Origin: Patescibacteria group bacterium
GTDB taxonomy: Bacteria > Patescibacteriota > Patescibacteriia > UBA10025 > JAHIVO01
Direction: 5' to 3'
Assembly (NCBI GenBank): GCA_041660605.1
Contig: JBAZWB010000002.1
Span: 305,940-347,065 of the forward strand
DNA length: 41,126 nucleotides
Shown: positions 7,662 through 41,126 of the stretch, piece after piece
Layout: the number at the start of each line of letters is the position of its first letter
Position numbering within the stretch: the first letter of the stretch is position 1
Notes under the pieces: generated by a model
Told to the model about the DNA's origin: nothing
Databases searched by the model: none
The model's input: only the letters and a program-made list of their open reading frames with translations
Translations under genes and position numbers: made by a program

Positions 7662-7894
7662 AATTGAGACTTTGTAAAGCGTCGCCCCACAATCTTGTCA
7701 TTGCGAGGAACGAGCGGAGCGAGTGACGTGGCAATCTGATGCGAAGCATCATTCTGAGCTCGCGAAGGATCCCGTGTAATTATGCAGCGAGATACTTCAC
7801 TGGCGTTCAGTACGGTGCTGCGCACCGGATTCTCACGTCGCCCCGTCATGCGACGGGGCTCCTCAGAATGACAGTGAGTGGGCGGTGCTTGCAA
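7662..7894. repeat. GC-rich composite palindromic repeat cluster in an AT-rich spacer
   Basis: Three copies of the word (g/a)tcatt(g/c)(c/t)gag: 7697-7708, 7748-7759, and inverted at 7861-7872. Hairpin ccccgtcatgcgacgggg at 7841-7858. All three ORF-track ORFs here run through the repeats. Confidence 0.7.
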
Positions 7895-25582: not shown

Positions 25583-25611
25583 AACTTAGTAAAATTTGAA
25601 TATTTTGTCAA
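25583..25611 (-). promoter_or_regulatory. sigma-70-type promoter for the STAS gene
   Basis: The minus strand reads TTGACA, 17 nt, TAAGTT; a GGAGGG RBS lies before the ATG. Confidence 0.4.
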
Positions 25612-25645
25612 CCCTATGCTATAAACTTTATAAAGCTAAAGTTCT

Positions 25646-25675
25646 TTGACTTTTCCGGTCTTAGTGTCGTAGAAT
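25646..25675 (+). promoter_or_regulatory. sigma-70-type promoter for the recombinase gene, possibly giving a leaderless mRNA
   Basis: TTGACT, 18 nt, TAGAAT. The -10 box ends 6 nt before the ATG at 25682. Confidence 0.4.
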
Positions 25676-25681
25676 GTATAT

Positions 25682-26566
25682 ATGGAAAATAATATTGACC
25701 AATATTTCAAAAGCTTCCTGGAATATTTGGCCGCGCAAAAGCAGGTCTCGGCTTTGACTATACAAAACTATAAATTTTATCTTTCGCGTTTTAATTTATT
25801 GATACAAGTAAAAGAGCCGGCTGACATTAATATTGAAACGGTAAATAAATTCCGCGAACTCCTCGGCCAGATACGCAACCAGCGCGGGGAGCTGATGAAA
25901 CCCGTCACCCAGAACTACCACCTCATTGCCCTGCGTGCTTTTCTGGCTTATCTGAAAAATCTGGGCCTAACCGTGCTCGGTCCAGAAACTATCATCCTTA
26001 ATAAAATTGGAAAAAATATAATCAGCACTGTTGAACCTCAAAATATTGAGAAACTGCTGGAATCGCCTCTACACGCCAAGAATCCCAGCCTTATACAAAA
26101 ACGGGACAAGGCTATCCTGGAGCTGCTCCTCAGCACCGGCCTGAAAGTCTCCGAACTCTCCGCCCTGAAAAAAGGCCAGATTGATTTCCTGAAAAATTCG
26201 CTGACTATCCGGGGGCTGGGTGACCGTTTGCGCACGGTGGAGCTGACTAACCAGGCGAAATACTGGATCAAGCAGTATCTGGAATCGCGCCAGGATAATT
26301 TCCCCGCGCTTTTCATCCGTCATGACAAGGCAAAAACCAAACAGCTGAACAAAATCCTGCCGGAAGCCTACCAGCTGACGCCGCGGACTATCCAGCGCAT
26401 TATCAAGAAATACGCCAAAGCCGCCCAGCTCGATCCCGGCATTACTCCACAAACCCTGCGCAACTCCTACGCCAAATACCTCCTGGAAAAAGGCGAAGAC
26501 ATTAAAACTATCCAATCAATACTCGGGCACGCCTCAGTAGTAACTACCCACTTATACACCAAATAA
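25682..26566 (+). CDS. tyrosine site-specific recombinase, XerC/XerD family
   Basis: N-terminal SAM-like core-binding domain. The C-terminus has ...TPRTIQR..., LRNSYA, and LGHASVVTTHLYT with the catalytic Tyr. Confidence 0.8.
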   Translation: MENNIDQYFKSFLEYLAAQKQVSALTIQNYKFYLSRFNLLIQVKEPADINIETVNKFRELLGQIRNQRGELMKPVTQNYHLIALRAFLAYLKNLGLTVLGPETIILNKIGKNIISTVEPQNIEKLLESPLHAKNPSLIQKRDKAILELLLSTGLKVSELSALKKGQIDFLKNSLTIRGLGDRLRTVELTNQAKYWIKQYLESRQDNFPALFIRHDKAKTKQLNKILPEAYQLTPRTIQRIIKKYAKAAQLDPGITPQTLRNSYAKYLLEKGEDIKTIQSILGHASVVTTHLYTK

Positions 26567-26569
26567 CGA

Positions 26570-26598
26570 TTGACTTTATTGGCAATCCTTGATAATTT
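26570..26598 (+). promoter_or_regulatory. promoter-like element ahead of the tRNA-Arg remnant ladder
   Basis: TTGACT at 26570-26575, then tgataattt (an extended -10-like box) 15-17 nt downstream. Confidence 0.3.
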
Positions 26599-26640
26599 TC
26601 TATCATTAATCACGCACCTCCCGAGTTCCCCGCCAACCAT

Positions 26641-26724
26641 GCCCCTGTAGTTTCCGCCAGAGGCGGATCACCCGCCCGCCCGCTCCGACTCGCGGAGCGA
26701 TGTCGGGCGCGGCAGGGTGACAAC
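26641..26724 (+). pseudogene. tRNA-Arg 5' remnant a (tRNA nt 1-16) split by a 68-nt GC-rich structured insert
   Basis: gcccctgtagtt (26641-26652) plus caac (26721-26724) equal nt 1-16 of the intact gene at 27131. The insert at 26653-26720 consists of nested hairpins (tccgcc/ggcgga, tcaccc/gggtga, cgctccg/cggagcg). Confidence 0.6.
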
Positions 26725-26748
26725 TGATTCATATCTTTCATCGCCCTC

Positions 26749-26847
26749 GCCCTTGTAGTTCAACGTCCCGTCCCAGCCGCTTCGCGGCGGGACGAGGATC
26801 CTCGCTCCGCCTCCGGCGGAGCGGGAGATAGAACGCCAGCCTTCTAA
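26749..26847 (+). pseudogene. tRNA-Arg(TCT) 5' remnant b (nt 1-38) with a 61-nt GC-rich insert in the D-loop
   Basis: gcccttgtagttcaacg [61 nt, 26766-26826] gatagaacgccagccttctaa. Removing the insert restores the intact gene sequence with one mismatch. Homology stops in the anticodon loop, where the GIY-YIG segment begins. Confidence 0.7.
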
Positions 26848-26861
26848 AATTTATTTTCAAA

Positions 26862-27119
26862 ATGAATTATTTCACTTATATACTAAGAAGTCTCAAAGAT
26901 AATTCATATTACATTGGTTCAACCGATAACTTAAATAAAAGAGTTGCCCAGCATAATCAGGGTAGCGTACGGTCAACAAAAGGTAGGTTACCATGGGAAC
27001 TTATTTACACAGAAGAATTTAATACACGGGGTGAAGCATTTATTAGAGAGAAATATATTAAATCCAGAAAGAAACGAAAATATATTGAGCAGCTTATTAA
27101 CAAGAAAGATAAACAATAA
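26862..27119 (+). CDS. small stand-alone GIY-YIG nuclease (UPF0213/YhbQ-like)
   Basis: YTYILRS..DNSYYIGSTDNLNKRVAQHNQG ... WELIYTEEF ... EAFIREKYIK, the canonical GIY-(10-11)-YIG, R and E pattern. Confidence 0.85.
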   Translation: MNYFTYILRSLKDNSYYIGSTDNLNKRVAQHNQGSVRSTKGRLPWELIYTEEFNTRGEAFIREKYIKSRKKRKYIEQLINKKDKQ

Positions 27120-27130
27120 CTCACTTTTCT

Positions 27131-27202
27131 GCCCCTGTAGTTCAACGGATAGAACGCCAGCCTTCTAAGCTGGACATAGAGGTCCGATTCCTCTCGGGGG
27201 CA
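27131..27202 (+). tRNA. tRNA-Arg (anticodon TCT), no encoded CCA
   Basis: Manual cloverleaf: acceptor gcccctg/cgggggc, D-stem gttc/gaac, anticodon arm ccagc-cttctaa-gctgg, T-arm agagg-tccgatt-cctct, discriminator A. T-loop position 55 reads C instead of T. Confidence 0.8.
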
Positions 27203-27218
27203 AATAAACAATAAGTTC

Positions 27219-27340
27219 GATTCTCAAAAACATTAATACAATAAAATGATGAGATCCCGCTCTGAGCGAAGTCGAAGGGGCGGGGTTCCTGGGGACACTT
27301 TGCGAGTTTAAGAATACTAACTTTAAGATTCTCGAAAACA
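27219..27340 (+). repeat. 14-nt direct repeats flanking a 94-nt segment with a GC-rich hairpin core
   Basis: gattctcaaaaaca (27219-27232) and gattctcgaaaaca (27327-27340) match at 13 of 14. The interior contains cccgctctgagcgaagtcgaaggggcggg. Confidence 0.45.
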
Positions 27341-27355
27341 ATAACTTAATAAATT

Positions 27356-27727
27356 ATGGGAAGCAATATAGAAATAAATGATACTTTGCAGCTCACGACC
27401 AAACAGGGATTTCCGGCTGAGCTTAACCTGGAAACGCATTTGAAAACGCCCTACCAAACTGAGAATTTTAAGGGCAAAATATTTGAATTTAAAAATAAGC
27501 CTGGTATCAGAGTATATCAGTCTCCGCCAATCAGAAATTTCCTGGTGGAAAATAAGGATGGCAAGTGGATTTACTGGGGGTTAGTTCATATACTCGAAAT
27601 AACTTATGATTATGTAAACAAATCCACCTCCGGAAAATTCGAAATTATATATATAAATAAACCAGAAGAAATGCCAAAGGCCCATGAACTGATTGACCAC
27701 AGGAAAGATACGCAATTCTTCAGTTAA
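27356..27727 (+). CDS. hypothetical protein
   Basis: Clean 123-aa ORF; no family recognised. Confidence 0.45.
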   Translation: MGSNIEINDTLQLTTKQGFPAELNLETHLKTPYQTENFKGKIFEFKNKPGIRVYQSPPIRNFLVENKDGKWIYWGLVHILEITYDYVNKSTSGKFEIIYINKPEEMPKAHELIDHRKDTQFFS

Positions 27728-27858
27728 AGACTTAAATCAATTTCTGAGACTAATTTTAGAGAATCAAAATACCTTAGGATTATTAATTAACTGAGGTTAT
27801 TTTATTATATTTTGGCTAATATTAAATATATTTAGCCTCCAGATGTGGATATCCAGTC

Positions 27859-27887
27859 TTGACAAAAAGCCTGCCCAGGTATATACT
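27859..27887 (+). promoter_or_regulatory. consensus sigma-70-type promoter
   Basis: TTGACA (27859-27864), 17 nt, TATACT (27882-27887). Confidence 0.5.
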
Positions 27888-28186
27888 CCTTAGTTACGCT
27901 AAAAAACCACAACTTATCGGGTAATTCGAACTGAAGGAGAGAGCAGTAAGAATACCCAAATTTAGATGTCATCAAGGCACTCTCTCCGAGTACCTCGTTT
28001 TATTTTCCTGGCGTAATATCGGCCCTTTGAAAATAGGATACGAACACATAGAAAACTCTGATGTTTGGGAGCAGTCTGTTGGCGGTTAAGCAATTGACCA
28101 CAGCAAACTGTTCTCAAACTATTTGTACAAAGTGGAGCAGTCGAATGATTGTTCTGTGATGTACATAACATTACAGGAGGTTTCAG

Positions 28187-28711
28187 ATGATTAACAAAAG
28201 AATCACAAAGGATGTAATCAAGCAGATTGAAACTCTGCCGATTACGGTTAATCGCAAGATTGACGCTAAAGATGCGATGAGAGATTGTAGAAGATTTGGA
28301 TTTCCGAAAGTTAATGGTGATGCTTTTTCGGTAAAATTCCCTCAGCACTATCACCACATTGGAGACGAAATAATCATAGTCTCCATTGAAGAAGACCTGT
28401 CAATGGATGAAGTCCTTGAAGCCTTTGCGTTGTGTGAATTGAAGCCGGCAGATGTCCTTGATCTGATTGCCTTGGTAAATCAACATCCCGACGCGATTAA
28501 AGAAAGTAAGGCAATCTATGCATTATTTTCCTTCGTGCAAGGATCATGGTTTTCGGGCGTACCATGGGTTTCTTCAATCGTGTATCGCTATAAGAGCCAG
28601 ATCACTTCTCGGGATATTTGGCTCAATATACGTCATGAACGCTTTGGCTTTCAATTCAAAAAGGGTACGCAGTTTGCAGCGTATCGCATTCATCACAATC
28701 TTGGCCGGTAA
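28187..28711 (+). CDS. hypothetical protein
   Basis: A strong AGGAGG RBS lies 7 nt before the ATG. 174 aa, no family recognised. It lies about 300 nt downstream of the consensus promoter. Confidence 0.55.
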   Translation: MINKRITKDVIKQIETLPITVNRKIDAKDAMRDCRRFGFPKVNGDAFSVKFPQHYHHIGDEIIIVSIEEDLSMDEVLEAFALCELKPADVLDLIALVNQHPDAIKESKAIYALFSFVQGSWFSGVPWVSSIVYRYKSQITSRDIWLNIRHERFGFQFKKGTQFAAYRIHHNLGR

Positions 28712-28982
28712 AGACAGTGAGTAAAAATTTCATCCATTAAAGGCGCAGTTTAGTCAGTGTTTTGTTCGGTTGGTAGGCATTGATACTTCTCTCAAGAGAA
28801 TTATCACAAGTTTGTATCGGGAGGTAATGTGTACCTCATTAGTTGTTCGTTAAATCGTTCCATGAGTAATTCGGAACGTGGCGAAAATTTATACTTTCAC
28901 CCTTTGATCTTTATTTCTCTCAAGACCTGCTCCGGTAACTGTTGCATAGGTCTTTTTTCTTTTCCAAAAAATTCTTACCCGC

Positions 28983-29011
28983 TTGACTAAATTTTATTTC
29001 CAAACTAATGT
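28983..29011 (+). promoter_or_regulatory. sigma-70-type promoter ahead of the tRNA-Lys array
   Basis: TTGACT (28983-28988), 17 nt, TAATGT (29006-29011). Remnant A starts at 29024. Confidence 0.4.
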
Positions 29012-29023
29012 TTAATTACTACC

Positions 29024-29156
29024 GGGACGTTAGCTCCCCGCACCATACTCACTCCGTTAGTAGGTACGGGGCAGGCAGCTTGCCCCGCCAAGAACTGGCG
29101 GGGTGAAGTAGAGCAGCTGCCTCTTACTTGTCCCGTCTGAATAGACGGGGAGCAAC
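29024..29156 (+). pseudogene. tRNA-Lys(CTT) remnant A with a D-loop insert and a 24-nt insert at position 37/38; T-arm decayed
   Basis: gggacgttagctc [67 nt GC-rich] tgaagtagagcagctgcctctta [cttgtcccgtctgaatagacgggg] agcaac. No T-arm or 3' acceptor follows. Confidence 0.65.
29036..29071. repeat. hairpin element H1, copy 1 (in the D-loop of remnant A)
   Basis: ccccgcaccatactcactccgttagtaggtacgggg. About 28 of 36 positions match the reverse complement of the copy at 29697-29734. Confidence 0.65.
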
Positions 29157-29220
29157 AGGTCGCCTTGCGTCATCAGAAGAATCAAAAAAAATAATTAATA
29201 AATACTAATTTTCATATTAT

Positions 29221-29326
29221 GGGACGTTAGCTCAGTTGGTAGAGCAGCTGCCTCTTAAGCAGCGGGTCGCAGGTTCGCCCGGTCATCCGACCGGGCAGCC
29301 CGGGGTTTATCCCCGGGCGAGTCCTG
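29221..29326 (+). pseudogene. tRNA-Lys(CTT) remnant B: intact from nt 1 to the T-loop, 41-nt double-hairpin insert in the T-loop, 3' end missing
   Basis: gggacgt ta gctc agttggta gagc a gctgc ctcttaa gcagc gggtc gcagg ttcg [29278-29318] gagtcctg. Homology then ends 9 nt short of a complete tRNA. Confidence 0.7.
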
Positions 29327-29336
29327 ATGAAATTAT

Positions 29337-29597
29337 ATGACATACATTTACTTTCTACATCTATCAAATGGTGATATTTATAAAGGACTGACTGATCGGT
29401 TAAAAGAGAGAATCTCCGAGCATCAACAGGGCAAAGTGAAATCAACAAAAAACTACCGCCCTTTTAAATTAATCGGTTATGAATACTATTCACTAAAAAG
29501 TGATGCGGAACGCAGGGAAAAATTTCTTAAAACGACTGAAGGCCGGCGTTTATTAAAACAACAATATCGGGATATTATCAATAATACGCGCCCATAG
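29337..29597 (+). CDS. small stand-alone GIY-YIG nuclease (UPF0213/YhbQ-like)
   Basis: YIYFLHLSNGDIYKGLTDRLKERISEHQQG ... FKLIGYEYY ... AERREKFLK. The last 10 nt, including the TAG stop, overlap the 5' end of tRNA-Lys. Confidence 0.8.
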   Translation: MTYIYFLHLSNGDIYKGLTDRLKERISEHQQGKVKSTKNYRPFKLIGYEYYSLKSDAERREKFLKTTEGRRLLKQQYRDIINNTRP

Positions 29598-29659
29598 CTC
29601 AATGGTAGAGCATCTGCCTCTTAAGCAGGGTGTTGCAGGTTCGAATCCTGCTGGGCGCA
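29588..29659 (+). tRNA. tRNA-Lys (anticodon CTT), no encoded CCA
   Basis: Manual cloverleaf: gcgccca ta gctc aatggta gagc a tctgc ctcttaa gcagg gtgtt gcagg ttcgaat cctgc tgggcgc a. Confidence 0.9.
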
Positions 29660-29692
29660 TTTTAAAAAATATTTAAAATCAGCTGCCTCTTA

Positions 29693-29734
29693 CTTGCCCC
29701 GTACCTAACGAACAGCGTGAGTTATGGTATGGGG
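29693..29734. repeat. hairpin element H1, copy 2 (inverted relative to copy 1), inserted at tRNA position 37/38
   Basis: cttg ccccgtacc taacgaacagcgtgagttat ggtatgggg, with a 9-bp stem. Confidence 0.65.
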
Positions 29735-29758
29735 AGCAGCGGGTCGCAGGTTCGCCTG

Positions 29759-29776
29759 CCCCGTCGCATGACGGGG
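29759..29776. repeat. hairpin element H2 (ccccgtc-gcat-gacgggg)
   Basis: Exact reverse complement of 7841-7858. The same cccgtc/gacggg stem with another loop occurs at 29132-29149. Confidence 0.7.
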
Positions 29777-29921
29777 AGCCCTGCACGCCCCACCAATTAA
29801 TAATAGAATAAAACGAAGTAAACCCTTGCGCTTGCTCAAAGCCAAATTTTCGGCTATATTATTATTATATTATAGCGATTTTTTTATTCAAAAGCAGGCA
29901 TAATATTTTTCTAAAAAACGT

Positions 29922-31268
29922 ATGATCCAGACTGAGAAGATAAGAAAGTATTTTCCGGCTATACAGGCAGGCAGGATTGTCTCCAATAACGCGGCGAGCT
30001 CGCAAGTCCCCATTCAATTGATGGACTTGATGAAAGAGCTTATTGTCCAGTATGACAATGTCCATCGGGGCCAGTCCCGGTCTTCAATACTGACGACCGA
30101 AAGATTTGAGTCCGCCTACGATACTATCGCGCAATTTATCGGCGCGCCCTCCAGAAAAAACATCATCCTGTACAGAAACACCACCGAAGCGATTAATTCA
30201 GTCGCCTATTCTTTGCTGACTGAATTCCGGGATGGCGATAATGTGGTGACGACATATATGGAGCATAATTCAAATTACGTTCCGTGGTATGGATTATGCA
30301 GGGAAATATTGCCGAAATTCGGCATCAAGGTTGAATACCGGATCGCGCGGTTTGACAAAGAGACGGGGCAGCTTGACCTTGAGCATTTGAAATCCCTGGT
30401 TGACGAAAAGACCAAGCTGGTTTGCTGCAATGGCGCGTCAAATTTTCTAGGAACGAAAAATCCCATCGGGAAAATAAGGGCTATCGCCGACTCCAGCGGA
30501 TATGTCCAGCCGAGCGGTGAAAAAAAATCATATTTACTCATAGATGGGGCGCAGTTTGTCCCCAATATGTACGTCAATGCCGAAGAACTGCAGGCGGATT
30601 TTCTGGCCTGGTCTTTTCATAAAATGCTCGCGCCGTTCGGGGTGGGAGTTTTGTACGCCAGGGAAGAACTGCTGGAAAAAATGAAACCTTTTCTTTACGG
30701 CGGGGATATGATTGCCGAGGGGAAAGTCAGTCCGGAAAAAGTCGAGTATAATACGCTGCCCTGGAAATTCACGGCCGGTACTCCTAATATTCTAGGGGCG
30801 ATTGTTTCCGCCCAAGCCATGAGATTATTAATGGATTTTTCCCTGAACCCCGGGGAATATAATTATTTCATGACCGATAAAAAACTGGAGTCGCCAGAAA
30901 TTAAAAAGGCCATGGACATCGTTGAAGCCCACGAAAAGATTGTCATCGGAGAAGCGCTGAAGATATTAGGCGGCATACCGTCATTAACTATTTTCGGCCC
31001 GAAGAAACCTCAGGACAGGACTTCTTTAGTAGCATTCAACTGCCAGGGCATAAGCCCGTTTACCATCGCTGAGGAATTAAGCGCCAAGGGCGTGGAAGCC
31101 AGAGCGGGCTGCCATTGCGCGACATTAGCGCATTATTATTATGAATTGGATCCTCCAGCCAGCTGCCGGCTGAGTTTTTACATTTATAATAATATGGATG
31201 ATGTAAAAAAAGCGTGCCTCGCGGTAAAAGATTGCGTCGAAGCGAAAAATATAAATAATAAAAATTAA
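29922..31268 (+). CDS. class V aminotransferase, cysteine desulfurase (SufS/CsdA-like)
   Basis: PLP-lysine motif SFHKMLAPFG, a GGDM region, and RAGCHCA with the candidate catalytic Cys. Confidence 0.7.
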   Translation: MIQTEKIRKYFPAIQAGRIVSNNAASSQVPIQLMDLMKELIVQYDNVHRGQSRSSILTTERFESAYDTIAQFIGAPSRKNIILYRNTTEAINSVAYSLLTEFRDGDNVVTTYMEHNSNYVPWYGLCREILPKFGIKVEYRIARFDKETGQLDLEHLKSLVDEKTKLVCCNGASNFLGTKNPIGKIRAIADSSGYVQPSGEKKSYLLIDGAQFVPNMYVNAEELQADFLAWSFHKMLAPFGVGVLYAREELLEKMKPFLYGGDMIAEGKVSPEKVEYNTLPWKFTAGTPNILGAIVSAQAMRLLMDFSLNPGEYNYFMTDKKLESPEIKKAMDIVEAHEKIVIGEALKILGGIPSLTIFGPKKPQDRTSLVAFNCQGISPFTIAEELSAKGVEARAGCHCATLAHYYYELDPPASCRLSFYIYNNMDDVKKACLAVKDCVEAKNINNKN

Positions 31269-40555: not shown

Positions 40556-40603
40556 GCGGACGTGGCCCTACACCACTTCGCTACCGCTCCGGATGCAGGG
40601 CAA
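40556..40603 (+). pseudogene. tRNA-Leu 5' remnant (nt 1-15) split by a 33-nt insert
   Basis: gcggacgtggc [40567-40599] gcaa equals the first 15 nt of the intact tRNA-Leu 46 nt downstream. Confidence 0.5.
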
Positions 40604-40932: not shown

Positions 40933-41109
40933 GAACAGCCCATTTAAACAGGAAGTGGTTTGTTTTGGTATTAGAGAAATTTTACGGCTCGGGATTTGAA
41001 CGGGCAGAAGCGAGTCAACACTGAGTAAAACGAAGTGGCAGACGAGCGTCGACGAGCTGCCGGTGGCAGGTCGTCGCTGCCCAGGACGAGTCCCCGCAGG
41101 GGACGAGAT

Positions 41110-41126
41110 AATCCCTCTAGCCACCC
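41110..41126 (+). pseudogene. tRNA-His 3' remnant (T-loop to acceptor) at the window edge, preceded by GC-rich hairpins
   Basis: aatccctctagccaccc is identical to 40914-40930 of the intact gene. It is preceded by gacgagtccccgcaggggacgag, so the break lies inside the T-loop. Confidence 0.5.

Follow-up and report, generated by a model that had tools for sequence, protein, structure and literature searches.

Short GIY-YIG nuclease genes set between tRNA genes and hairpin-bearing tRNA remnants: a putative selfish cassette in Patescibacteria and other bacteria

In a 41,126-nt stretch of contig JBAZWB010000002.1 of a Patescibacteria group bacterium, referred to below as the window, we find two genes for stand-alone GIY-YIG nucleases of the SLX1/UPF0213 type, each situated between a complete tRNA gene, tRNA-Arg or tRNA-Lys, and disabled, hairpin-bearing copies of a tRNA of the same kind. 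The anatomy of such loci, the association of the nuclease genes with tRNA genes, the conservation of the hairpins, the clade of the protein, its patchy distribution and its absence at the orthologous site in two relatives are all directly established. As an explanation we propose a selfish nuclease cassette that would be co-transcribed with tRNAs and would spread by break-stimulated homologous recombination through the tRNA homology, keeping one working tRNA; we regard this proposal as probable, if only by a modest measure.

Two nuclease genes beside tRNA genes in the window

The first locus surrounds tRNA-Arg(TCT). All the elements that a first-pass annotation of the window had listed here, that is, a recombinase gene, tRNA remnants, a GIY-YIG open reading frame (ORF) and a complete tRNA-Arg, are in place, and the core of the locus consists of the following parts.

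26640..26724, plus strand: remnant R1, the 5' part of tRNA-Arg, a 68-nt hairpin insert and CAAC
26749..26847, plus strand: remnant R2, tRNA-Arg nt 1-38 with an insert in the D-loop, ending in the anticodon loop
26766..26826, plus strand: composite insert of R2, 61 nt in the D-loop, with the tandem hairpins TCCCG...CGAGGA and TCCTCG...CGGGA
26862..27119, plus strand: GIY-YIG nuclease ORF 1, 85 aa (Pfam GIY-YIG, 3.1e-18; GC 30.6%)
27131..27203, plus strand: complete tRNA-Arg(TCT), the functional copy (ARAGORN; Rfam, 66.6 bits)

R1 starts with TGCCCCTGTAGTT (26640-26652), a 13/13 match to the tRNA-Arg start (the preceding T and nt 1-12), which is followed by the GC-rich 68-nt insert (26653-26720; -27.9 kcal/mol, z -5.0) and by CAAC (26721-26724), a 4-nt continuation that is weak taken alone. 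R2 combines tRNA-Arg nt 1-17 (26749-26765, 16/17) with nt 18-38 (26827-26847, 21/21) and ends in ...CCTTCTAA (A37/A38); the near-identity of this remnant to the tRNA, noted earlier as 35/36, is thus confirmed with the figure of 37/38. The R2 insert folds, as a DNA hairpin, with -29.1 kcal/mol (z -5.8). The 21-mer of R2 alone has E=5e-7 within the window, and, since a 17-mer and a 13-mer are collinear with it, the probability of a chance match is negligible. The spacer between R2 and ORF 1 is 14 nt long, and that between ORF 1 and tRNA-Arg, 11 nt.

A second copy of the same design, absent from the first-pass annotation, is located at tRNA-Lys(CTT), 2.4 kb downstream of tRNA-Arg. It involves two versions of the tRNA, denoted A and B.

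29024..29164, plus strand: pseudo-tRNA-Lys A1 (version A), nt 1-13, an insert, nt 19-37, a hairpin and a degenerate continuation
29221..29324, plus strand: pseudo-tRNA-Lys A2 (version A), nt 1-59 unbroken (29221-29279) and two GC hairpins (29280-29324)
29337..29597, plus strand: GIY-YIG nuclease ORF 2, 86 aa (Pfam, 3.1e-12; GC 35.6%)
29588..29659, plus strand: complete tRNA-Lys(CTT), version B (ARAGORN; Rfam, 75.6 bits)
29680..29795, plus strand: pseudo-tRNA-Lys A3 (version A), nt 27-76 and CCA, downstream of tRNA-Lys

In A1, a 71-nt insert (29037-29107) precedes nt 19-37 (29108-29126), and a 24-nt hairpin is placed at 37/38 (29127-29150). A2 scores 33 bits as an Rfam tRNA at 29221-29290 and has a fold z of -4.7. 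In A3, one hairpin insert is placed at 37/38 (29693-29734) and another in the T-loop (29757-29778). ORF 2 is 33% identical to ORF 1 and overlaps the first 10 nt of tRNA-Lys. The acceptor stem of version B resembles that of tRNA-Lys in a relative (locus L082, see below), and a search for the source of the foreign-looking version A fragments gave no informative match among the collected loci.

Similar debris is found elsewhere in the window. A 72-nt GC-rich insert and a 17/17 copy of nt 57-73 of tRNA-His lie 178 nt downstream of that gene (41037-41126, cut by the window end), and tRNA-Leu is preceded by an 11/11 copy of its own first 11 nt (40556-40566). An intergenic region at 7662-7894 (233 nt) is rich in GC-rich palindromes; in it, GCCCCGTCATGCGACGGGGC (7841-7860, inside the GC-rich 7832-7866) almost equals the hairpin of the tRNA-Lys fragment at 29757-29778. 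Thus, the hairpin family is not limited to tRNA loci.

As the loci are rich in repeats, we compared the window with Logan contigs from two runs obtained in 2018 and 2022 in different studies. The region 25600-30000 is tiled by contigs of both runs with zero differences. In both runs the contigs end at repeated words only (26694, 27145-27166, 29226-29255), and the joins across these words depend on k-mer overlap, not on long reads; it is these breaks, at 26694, ~27150 and ~29240, that would be expected if repeats had been wrongly joined. On the other hand, the two samples, four years and two studies apart, give the same sequence, a single Logan contig (L001) alone covers R2, ORF 1 and tRNA-Arg and continues to 29255, and ~70 unrelated assemblies, among them long-read metagenome-assembled genomes and one isolate, show the same architecture. 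An assembly artefact is therefore scarcely credible. The many apparent joints in the run data are tRNAs of other organisms with 90% likeness. The gene content of the window is bacterial (PNPase, S15, NYN and STAS genes), with the GC content of 44%, and its contig, ~960 kb long, was recovered from groundwater metagenomes.

The nuclease family, its tRNA neighbours and the hairpins

Loci of homologous genes were collected in a five-homologue search with one genome per species, where 80 of the 273 confirmed matches were kept, 75 of them bacterial. A tRNA gene predicted by ARAGORN is located at most 160 nt from the ORF in 70 of the 75 bacterial loci, and all tRNAs within this distance share the strand of the ORF (76:0). 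The tRNA density is 1.61/kb beside the ORF vs. 0.066/kb in the rest of the same loci. Hence the adjacency of nucleases and tRNAs, for which the first-pass annotation had proposed a genome-wide check, is borne out elsewhere. Among the five bacterial loci lacking a tRNA within 160 nt, four have tRNA-like pieces beside the ORF, and L007 has hairpins only. The hosts include Patescibacteria, Bacteroidota, Acidobacteriota, Ignavibacteriota, Margulisiibacteriota, Neomarinimicrobiota, WOR-3 and Spirochaetota, and many different isoacceptors are involved.

We distinguish two arrangements: a pseudo-tRNA, the ORF and the tRNA, as in the window (type I, n = 40), and the tRNA, the ORF and a pseudo-tRNA (type II, n = 28); two loci have both. 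In most loci, as had been claimed for tRNA-Arg, partial copies of the adjacent tRNA flank the ORF, and they are often 100% identical to the neighbouring tRNA. Examples are fragments comprising nt 1-36 (L020, L059, L005), nt 36-88 (L022) and nt 44-77 (L025, L046, L053). The ORF ends directly at, or within, the 5' part of the tRNA or pseudo-tRNA downstream of it. In type II loci the distance from the tRNA 3' end to the start codon is 6-13 nt in the displayed loci and 37-130 nt in some. The ladder of remnants described earlier at tRNA-Arg also recurs, as tandem arrays: four near-identical 332-nt units of the ORF and pseudo-tRNA-Asn in L069, three units in L055, and six 83-nt pseudo-tRNA-Ala units in L081 from the cultured Flavobacterium ustbae T13. 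The proteins cluster by tRNA isotype across phyla, e.g. the Ser(GGA)/Tyr group unites Neomarinimicrobiota and Patescibacteria. The type I and type II loci at tRNA-Asp form sister groups, and thus the two arrangements seem to be alternative outcomes of one process.

The hairpins are linked to the ORFs as well, and most loci have the TCCCG...CGGGA hairpin. In all, 57 copies of it lie at most 200 nt from the ORFs (1.05/kb), whereas 25 copies are found elsewhere in the loci (0.074/kb), which is a 14-fold enrichment. In the 50 distinct copies the stem mostly has 7 bp, and the modal length of 17 nt is that of an anticodon arm, for which the hairpin usually stands in. The stems covary (A-T, G-C and C-G in position 6; T-A, C-G and G-C in position 7), the TCCCG/CGGGA ends are conserved, and no target-site duplication was seen at the hairpin elements. 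In many type II loci the ORF stops in the hairpin loop (TCC CGR TGA), so that gene and hairpin are physically fused. L087, which encodes the closest homologue (62% identity, beside tRNA-Lys), has an insert of the same two-hairpin design as R2, and GAGGATCCTC, the 10-mer at the R2 hairpin junction, is situated at most 200 nt from a GIY-YIG gene in six of its seven occurrences. In L005 the arms TCCCGA and TCGGGA bracket the whole cassette of the ORF and tRNA-Ala, which splits an outer, dead tRNA-Ala precisely at the boundary of nt 36/37. The earlier idea that hairpins merely collect in decaying remnants is not upheld: they represent an integral design conserved across phyla, with covarying stems, and, as they already stand beside remnants 100% identical to the tRNA, they do not simply build up in old debris. 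A breakpoint in the anticodon loop, also proposed earlier, holds for R2, but the commonest position across the loci is the base of the anticodon arm, as fragment ends peak at nt 27 (n = 15) and fragment starts at nt 44-46 (n = 17); smaller clusters fall into the anticodon, D and T loops.

The hairpins also affect gene prediction. ARAGORN calls some pseudo-tRNAs tRNA-Phe(gaa) (L070, 2701-2777; L072, 1323-1399) or tRNA-Cys(aca) (L068, 2178-2252), misled by a hairpin that looks like a 5-bp stem closed by a 7-nt loop.

As regards the protein, the whole 85-aa product of ORF 1 constitutes a GIY-YIG domain of superfamily PF01541, modelled by AlphaFold2 with pLDDT 92.5 and the beta-beta-alpha-beta-alpha-alpha order of elements. 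In the alignment of 29 sequences Y6, Y17, G19, R27, H31 and E63 are invariant, so that the catalytic Tyr, Tyr, Arg, His and Glu are kept, and there is no invariant Asn after E63; absence of the C-terminal Asn is a trait of the Slx1 clade, as opposed to the UvrC/I-TevI lineage (PMC1564403). An hmmsearch against PDB yielded 1zg2 (BH0048, 1.6e-15), 1ywl (EF2693, 3.2e-13) and SLX1 (about 1e-6). With Foldseek, 1zg2 and SLX1 were matched at E<=2.7e-3, 34-39% identity and 2.0-3.5 A, and I-TevI and UvrC only weakly, at E 0.2-0.5. Judged by sequence and by the modelled fold, the window proteins belong to the UPF0213/SLX1 clade and not to the I-TevI/Seg clade. We rejected orthology to eukaryotic SLX1, as the protein has 85 aa and lacks the C-terminal RING/PHD zinc finger, and likewise a Seg-type domain layout, as there is no C-terminal DNA-binding region and the fold is nearer to SLX1 than to I-TevI. 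As in Seg-type genes, the gene adjoins tRNA genes, and its presence differs between relatives (L082 and L083 lack the ORF).

The family is large, with 9,703 clusters at 50% identity (E<=1e-10). A search of 50,697 phage records gave 14 weak hits, and no phage Seg protein matched at E<=1e-3; a phage origin was rejected, as the family is almost absent from these records. Many database members are called as 100-130 aa proteins with 20-50 extra N-terminal residues, which probably reflect start codons placed within upstream tRNA remnants; ORF extension in our own locus analysis likewise ran into such remnants.

Proposed mechanism and competing explanations

Two relatives retain the order of a Xer-like recombinase gene and tRNA-Arg(TCT) at the orthologous site, and both lack the nuclease gene. 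Relatives lacking the ORF, which the first-pass annotation had suggested looking for, do exist. In L082, the Xer protein is 54% identical, S15 is located upstream, and tRNA-Lys follows tRNA-Arg after about 150 nt (151 nt in sequence), as opposed to 2.4 kb in the window. In L083 the Xer protein is 61% identical. The nuclease ORFs had been taken for incoming DNA, and they are compositional outliers indeed, with 31-36% GC vs. 46-50% in the flanking genes; together with the DNA between the tRNAs the range is 31-41%. The region between tRNA-Arg and the tRNA-Lys locus (27204-29023), ~1.8 kb of low-GC DNA (36-41%) with two ORFs of 123 and 174 aa that have no Pfam match, is probably inserted DNA.

The remaining features around tRNA-Arg are listed below.

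25682..26566, plus strand: gene of a Xer-like tyrosine recombinase, 294 aa (Pfam Phage_integrase, 1.3e-29), judged to be a neighbour outside the system
26579..26606, plus strand: promoter-like site TTGGCA-16-TATCAT upstream of the remnants, a weak candidate, as such sites are no more numerous in the region than expected from shuffling
27109..27119 and 27204..27214, plus strand: 11-nt exact direct repeat ATAAACAATAA, at the end of ORF 1 and directly after the tRNA
27204..27286, plus strand: region after tRNA-Arg, with the repeat copy, the T-loop-like GTTCGATTCTC (27215-27225) and a GC-rich stretch (27254-27286)

One may suppose that the recombinase integrated a small element into tRNA-Arg, leaving attL/attR-like repeats: its gene lies 74 nt upstream of R1, and integrase-borne islands do leave partial tRNA copies (PMC9897764). 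However, the enzyme is Xer-like (the closest NCBIfam models are XerD, XerC and XerA, all scores being below the cut-off), its gene is situated outside the repeats, the other GIY-YIG loci have no homologue of it in 78 of 80 cases (two have one), the order of Xer and tRNA-Arg is kept in the relatives without the cassette, and the tRNA-Lys locus has no recombinase. Hence the adjacency to tRNA-Arg is ancestral synteny, and this explanation, along with the role that the first-pass annotation had allowed for the recombinase, is effectively refuted.

The promoter-like site, if real, would place R1, R2, ORF 1 and the tRNA on one transcript. The ATAAACAATAA repeats bracket an 11-nt leader and tRNA-Arg, and their excision would set the ORF 1 stop directly before the T-loop-like GTTCGATTCTC; given this bracketing, tRNA-Arg itself may have been inserted or duplicated here. 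A search for a 3' tRNA-Arg remnant downstream gave only the T-loop-like 11-mer and the GC-rich stretch without a significant fold (z -0.7), so that 27204-27286 may perhaps be a decayed 3' remnant. The T-loop of tRNA-Arg (27184-27190) reads TCCGATT, with C in position 55, where U (pseudouridine) is nearly universal; in L082, L083 and the remnant downstream of tRNA-Arg it is TTCGAT.

Introns were considered as well. An Rfam scan of the window at E<=1 for a group I intron or another known RNA gave tRNAs and noise only. A group I intron with a homing endonuclease was rejected, as it has no Rfam hit, the downstream tRNA is complete and uninterrupted, and between R2 and tRNA-Arg there are just 25 nt besides ORF 1. 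An archaeal-type (bulge-helix-bulge) intron or a split tRNA was rejected too, since R1 and R2 have no 3' half and the host is bacterial; nor is there a set of exons to splice at other loci, where most pseudo-tRNAs lack nt 1-6 or nt 43-76.

We propose the following mechanism, which draws on the anatomy of the loci, on the kinship to SLX1, suggestive of structure-specific cutting, and on the behaviour experimentally shown for the phage nuclease SegB. The core of the cassette would be a stand-alone SLX1/UPF0213-type GIY-YIG gene within a tRNA transcription unit, with the working tRNA on one side and disabled hairpin-bearing copies of the same tRNA on the other. The ORF would be expressed by read-through from the tRNA promoter, tRNA processing setting the mRNA ends. 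The nuclease would then break the DNA of tRNA genes at cloverleaf junctions or loops, and repair by homologous recombination against the tRNA-like arm of the cassette would insert or amplify the ORF and a pseudo-tRNA beside the cognate tRNA; a single exchange 5' of the hairpin would yield type I, and one 3' of it, type II. The survivors would be those outcomes that retain one intact tRNA, and unequal exchange between direct tRNA repeats might subsequently produce ladders and tandem arrays.

Several considerations weigh against this mechanism. DNA cleavage, the cut position, co-transcription and the recombination route are all deduced from the anatomy. The working tRNA is identical to the remnant and hence should stay a target, and no mechanism of immunity is evident. 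A catalytic domain of 85 aa without a DNA-binding domain leaves unexplained how tRNA genes are found. At tRNA-Lys, the fragments on both sides are of version A whereas the tRNA that they enclose is of version B, and either version could be native. Empty-site variants were sought in the two metagenomic runs, and none were seen. A phylogenomic study of 2006 took prokaryotic Slx1-like proteins for vertically inherited repair factors and traced the selfish GIY-YIG enzymes to the other (UvrC+) lineage (PMC1564403). In the window, remnants or hairpins accompany tRNA-His and tRNA-Leu with no nuclease ORF nearby. Finally, L083 has a 5' remnant with a D-loop hairpin in the position of R1 and no GIY-YIG gene; thus, at a single locus a causal link between the nuclease and the remnants is unsupported. 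Remnants in relatives without the nuclease were an outcome that the first-pass annotation had named as refuting its reading; this was observed in L083 only, L082 being an ORF-less case of synteny. In L083 (400-580) there is also a complete tRNA-Arg between the inverted arms CCCGCTCACCTCAAC ... GTTGAGGCGAGCGGGG, with no ORF, directly behind an older 5' half that extends up to the anticodon.

The L083 remnant could result from ORF loss or from action in trans of another copy. It equally fits the possibility that the ORF is a passenger, that is, that tRNA duplications and hairpins are made otherwise, by self-mobile palindromic mini-elements, by replication slippage at cloverleaf DNA or by a trans-acting nuclease, and the GIY-YIG ORF merely settles in tRNA operons, which would offer it expression and a tolerated insertion site. 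Both the D-loop hairpin and the inverted arms in L083, the remnants at tRNA-His and tRNA-Leu, the similar CCCCGTC...GACGGGG hairpin in an unrelated intergenic region (7832-7866), and the remnants at tRNAs 400-900 nt from the ORF in L011 and L054 agree with it. However, the enrichment of the hairpin beside the ORFs, its conservation with them across phyla and the ORF stop in its loop are not expected of a passenger, and the ORF-less remnants fit ORF loss or action in trans, as for SegB, equally well. We therefore consider this explanation unlikely.

It may also be supposed that the GIY-YIG protein has been domesticated together with the tRNA-like structures, as a module with a host function in tRNA or RNA metabolism, in the control of tRNA-gene copy number, or in defence or counter-defence against tRNA-targeting toxins. 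The strict strand concordance and tight spacing imply co-transcription, and a hairpin of anticodon-arm size could let pseudo-tRNAs fold like tRNAs. A fusion of a prokaryotic Slx1-like domain with a TrmH-type tRNA methyltransferase has been reported (PMC1564403), and a phage benefits from SegB-driven tRNA amplification (PMC13096335). Homologues from Hadarchaea and Methanobacteriota (L009, L013, L014, L018, L049), which are 54-63% identical to the bacterial protein, have conserved synteny with no tRNA or hairpin nearby; for Hadarchaea (58-63% identity) this suggests transfer and then fixation. On the other hand, the patchy distribution with the ORF missing at the orthologous site in relatives, the many different isoacceptors, the tandem near-identical arrays and the aberrant GC content all speak against a host function, and most pseudo-tRNAs, having no acceptor strand or 3' half, cannot be tRNAs. 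Such a module is thus distinctly improbable.

Coming back to the selfish cassette, a further, tentative and on the whole doubtful step would be to see in it an unrecognised class of minimal mobile element, a bare SLX1-like domain aimed at tRNA genes by nucleic-acid structure. Candidate structures are the TCCCG...CGGGA hairpin, cloverleaf DNA, or a tRNA-like transcript base-paired to the tRNA gene. In one tRNA copy the hairpin of the element would take the place of the anticodon arm, and the tRNA homology would provide interchangeable targeting arms. If true, structure-based targeting would explain the presence of related 85-aa proteins in more than 15 isoacceptors and more than 10 phyla.

Relation to known systems and implications

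The protein itself is nearest, by sequence and fold, to the UPF0213 family (BH0048, 1zg2; EF2693, 1ywl; Escherichia coli YhbQ; Bacillus subtilis YazA) and to SLX1, and, like UPF0213 proteins, is a minimal stand-alone GIY-YIG domain. Cutting of branched and stem-loop DNA by SLX1 fits the breakpoints at cloverleaf junctions, although SLX1 has a RING/PHD finger and requires SLX4. No report of tRNA-gene linkage of SLX1/UPF0213 proteins was found in the open-access literature.

The closest precedent in behaviour is SegB of phages T4 and T6, a free-standing GIY-YIG homing endonuclease about 220 aa long. Its gene is part of the tRNA gene cluster, and the enzyme cleaves tRNA genes internally, at a motif resembling a T-loop, and causes segB and tRNAs to be amplified in a ladder-like manner that depends on homologous recombination (PMC2330249; PMC13096335); it also acts in trans (PMC13096335). 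In both systems a GIY-YIG gene is located among tRNA genes, with a statistical association across genomes. The differences are that SegB is a phage protein of the I-TevI/Seg clade with a C-terminal part beyond the GIY-YIG domain, whereas the window proteins have 85-86 aa, belong to the SLX1/UPF0213 clade, are chromosomal and are almost absent from phage records; no hairpin-bearing pseudo-tRNAs have been described for SegB.

Other systems share single features. Compared with integrase-borne islands in tRNA genes, there is no integrase here, the insert is about 0.3 kb, the duplicated part is a 5' or 3' half, and a conserved hairpin replaces the anticodon arm. Free-standing GIY-YIG ORFs of fungal mitochondria, e.g. 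in Allomyces atp6, arrive with a duplicate end of the host gene, so that, as here, a replacement part of the host gene comes along and pushes the old part aside, which persists as a pseudogene remnant; their targets are organellar protein-coding genes, and the nucleases are of another clade. REP/RAYT systems, mitochondrial GC clusters and double-hairpin elements are short spreading GC-rich palindromes with conserved ends, sometimes with a dedicated nuclease, which in the case of RAYT is an HUH enzyme, unlike the GIY-YIG protein here. Moreover, in contrast to REP/RAYT, the hairpins described here stand at defined tRNA positions and have no target-site duplication.

In open-access full texts, neither stand-alone Slx1-like GIY-YIG genes linked to tRNAs nor pseudo-tRNAs with hairpins were found to be described; this literature gave SegB, fungal mitochondrial homing endonuclease genes and integrase-made tRNA fragments only, and absence from it is not proof of novelty. 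The query by family names (UPF0213, YhbQ, COG2827, YazA, Slx1-like) was swamped by unrelated prefix matches, and the paper of 2006 likewise has no such arrangement (PMC1564403). The arrangement is thus apparently undescribed and apparently widespread, nuclease-driven selfish DNA associated with tRNAs is already known from the SegB precedent, and there is a fair chance that targeting follows a new principle.

Members of the family are usually annotated only as "GIY-YIG nuclease family protein", and should most of them be selfish cassettes linked to tRNAs, this would account for a large class of hypothetical genes. Selfish behaviour would be added to the prokaryotic SLX1-like branch, hitherto regarded as a repair lineage (PMC1564403), and SegB-style tRNA amplification would reach from phages to cellular chromosomes. 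For annotation, the loci form a trap, as tRNA finders call pseudo-tRNAs real and gene callers run ORFs through tRNA remnants. If true, a nuclease of just 85 aa that is directed to its targets by structure or homology would be of enzymological interest. In Patescibacteria each tRNA isoacceptor is probably single-copy, and an element that breaks and rebuilds tRNA genes would be a relevant force in the evolution of tRNA genes in small genomes.

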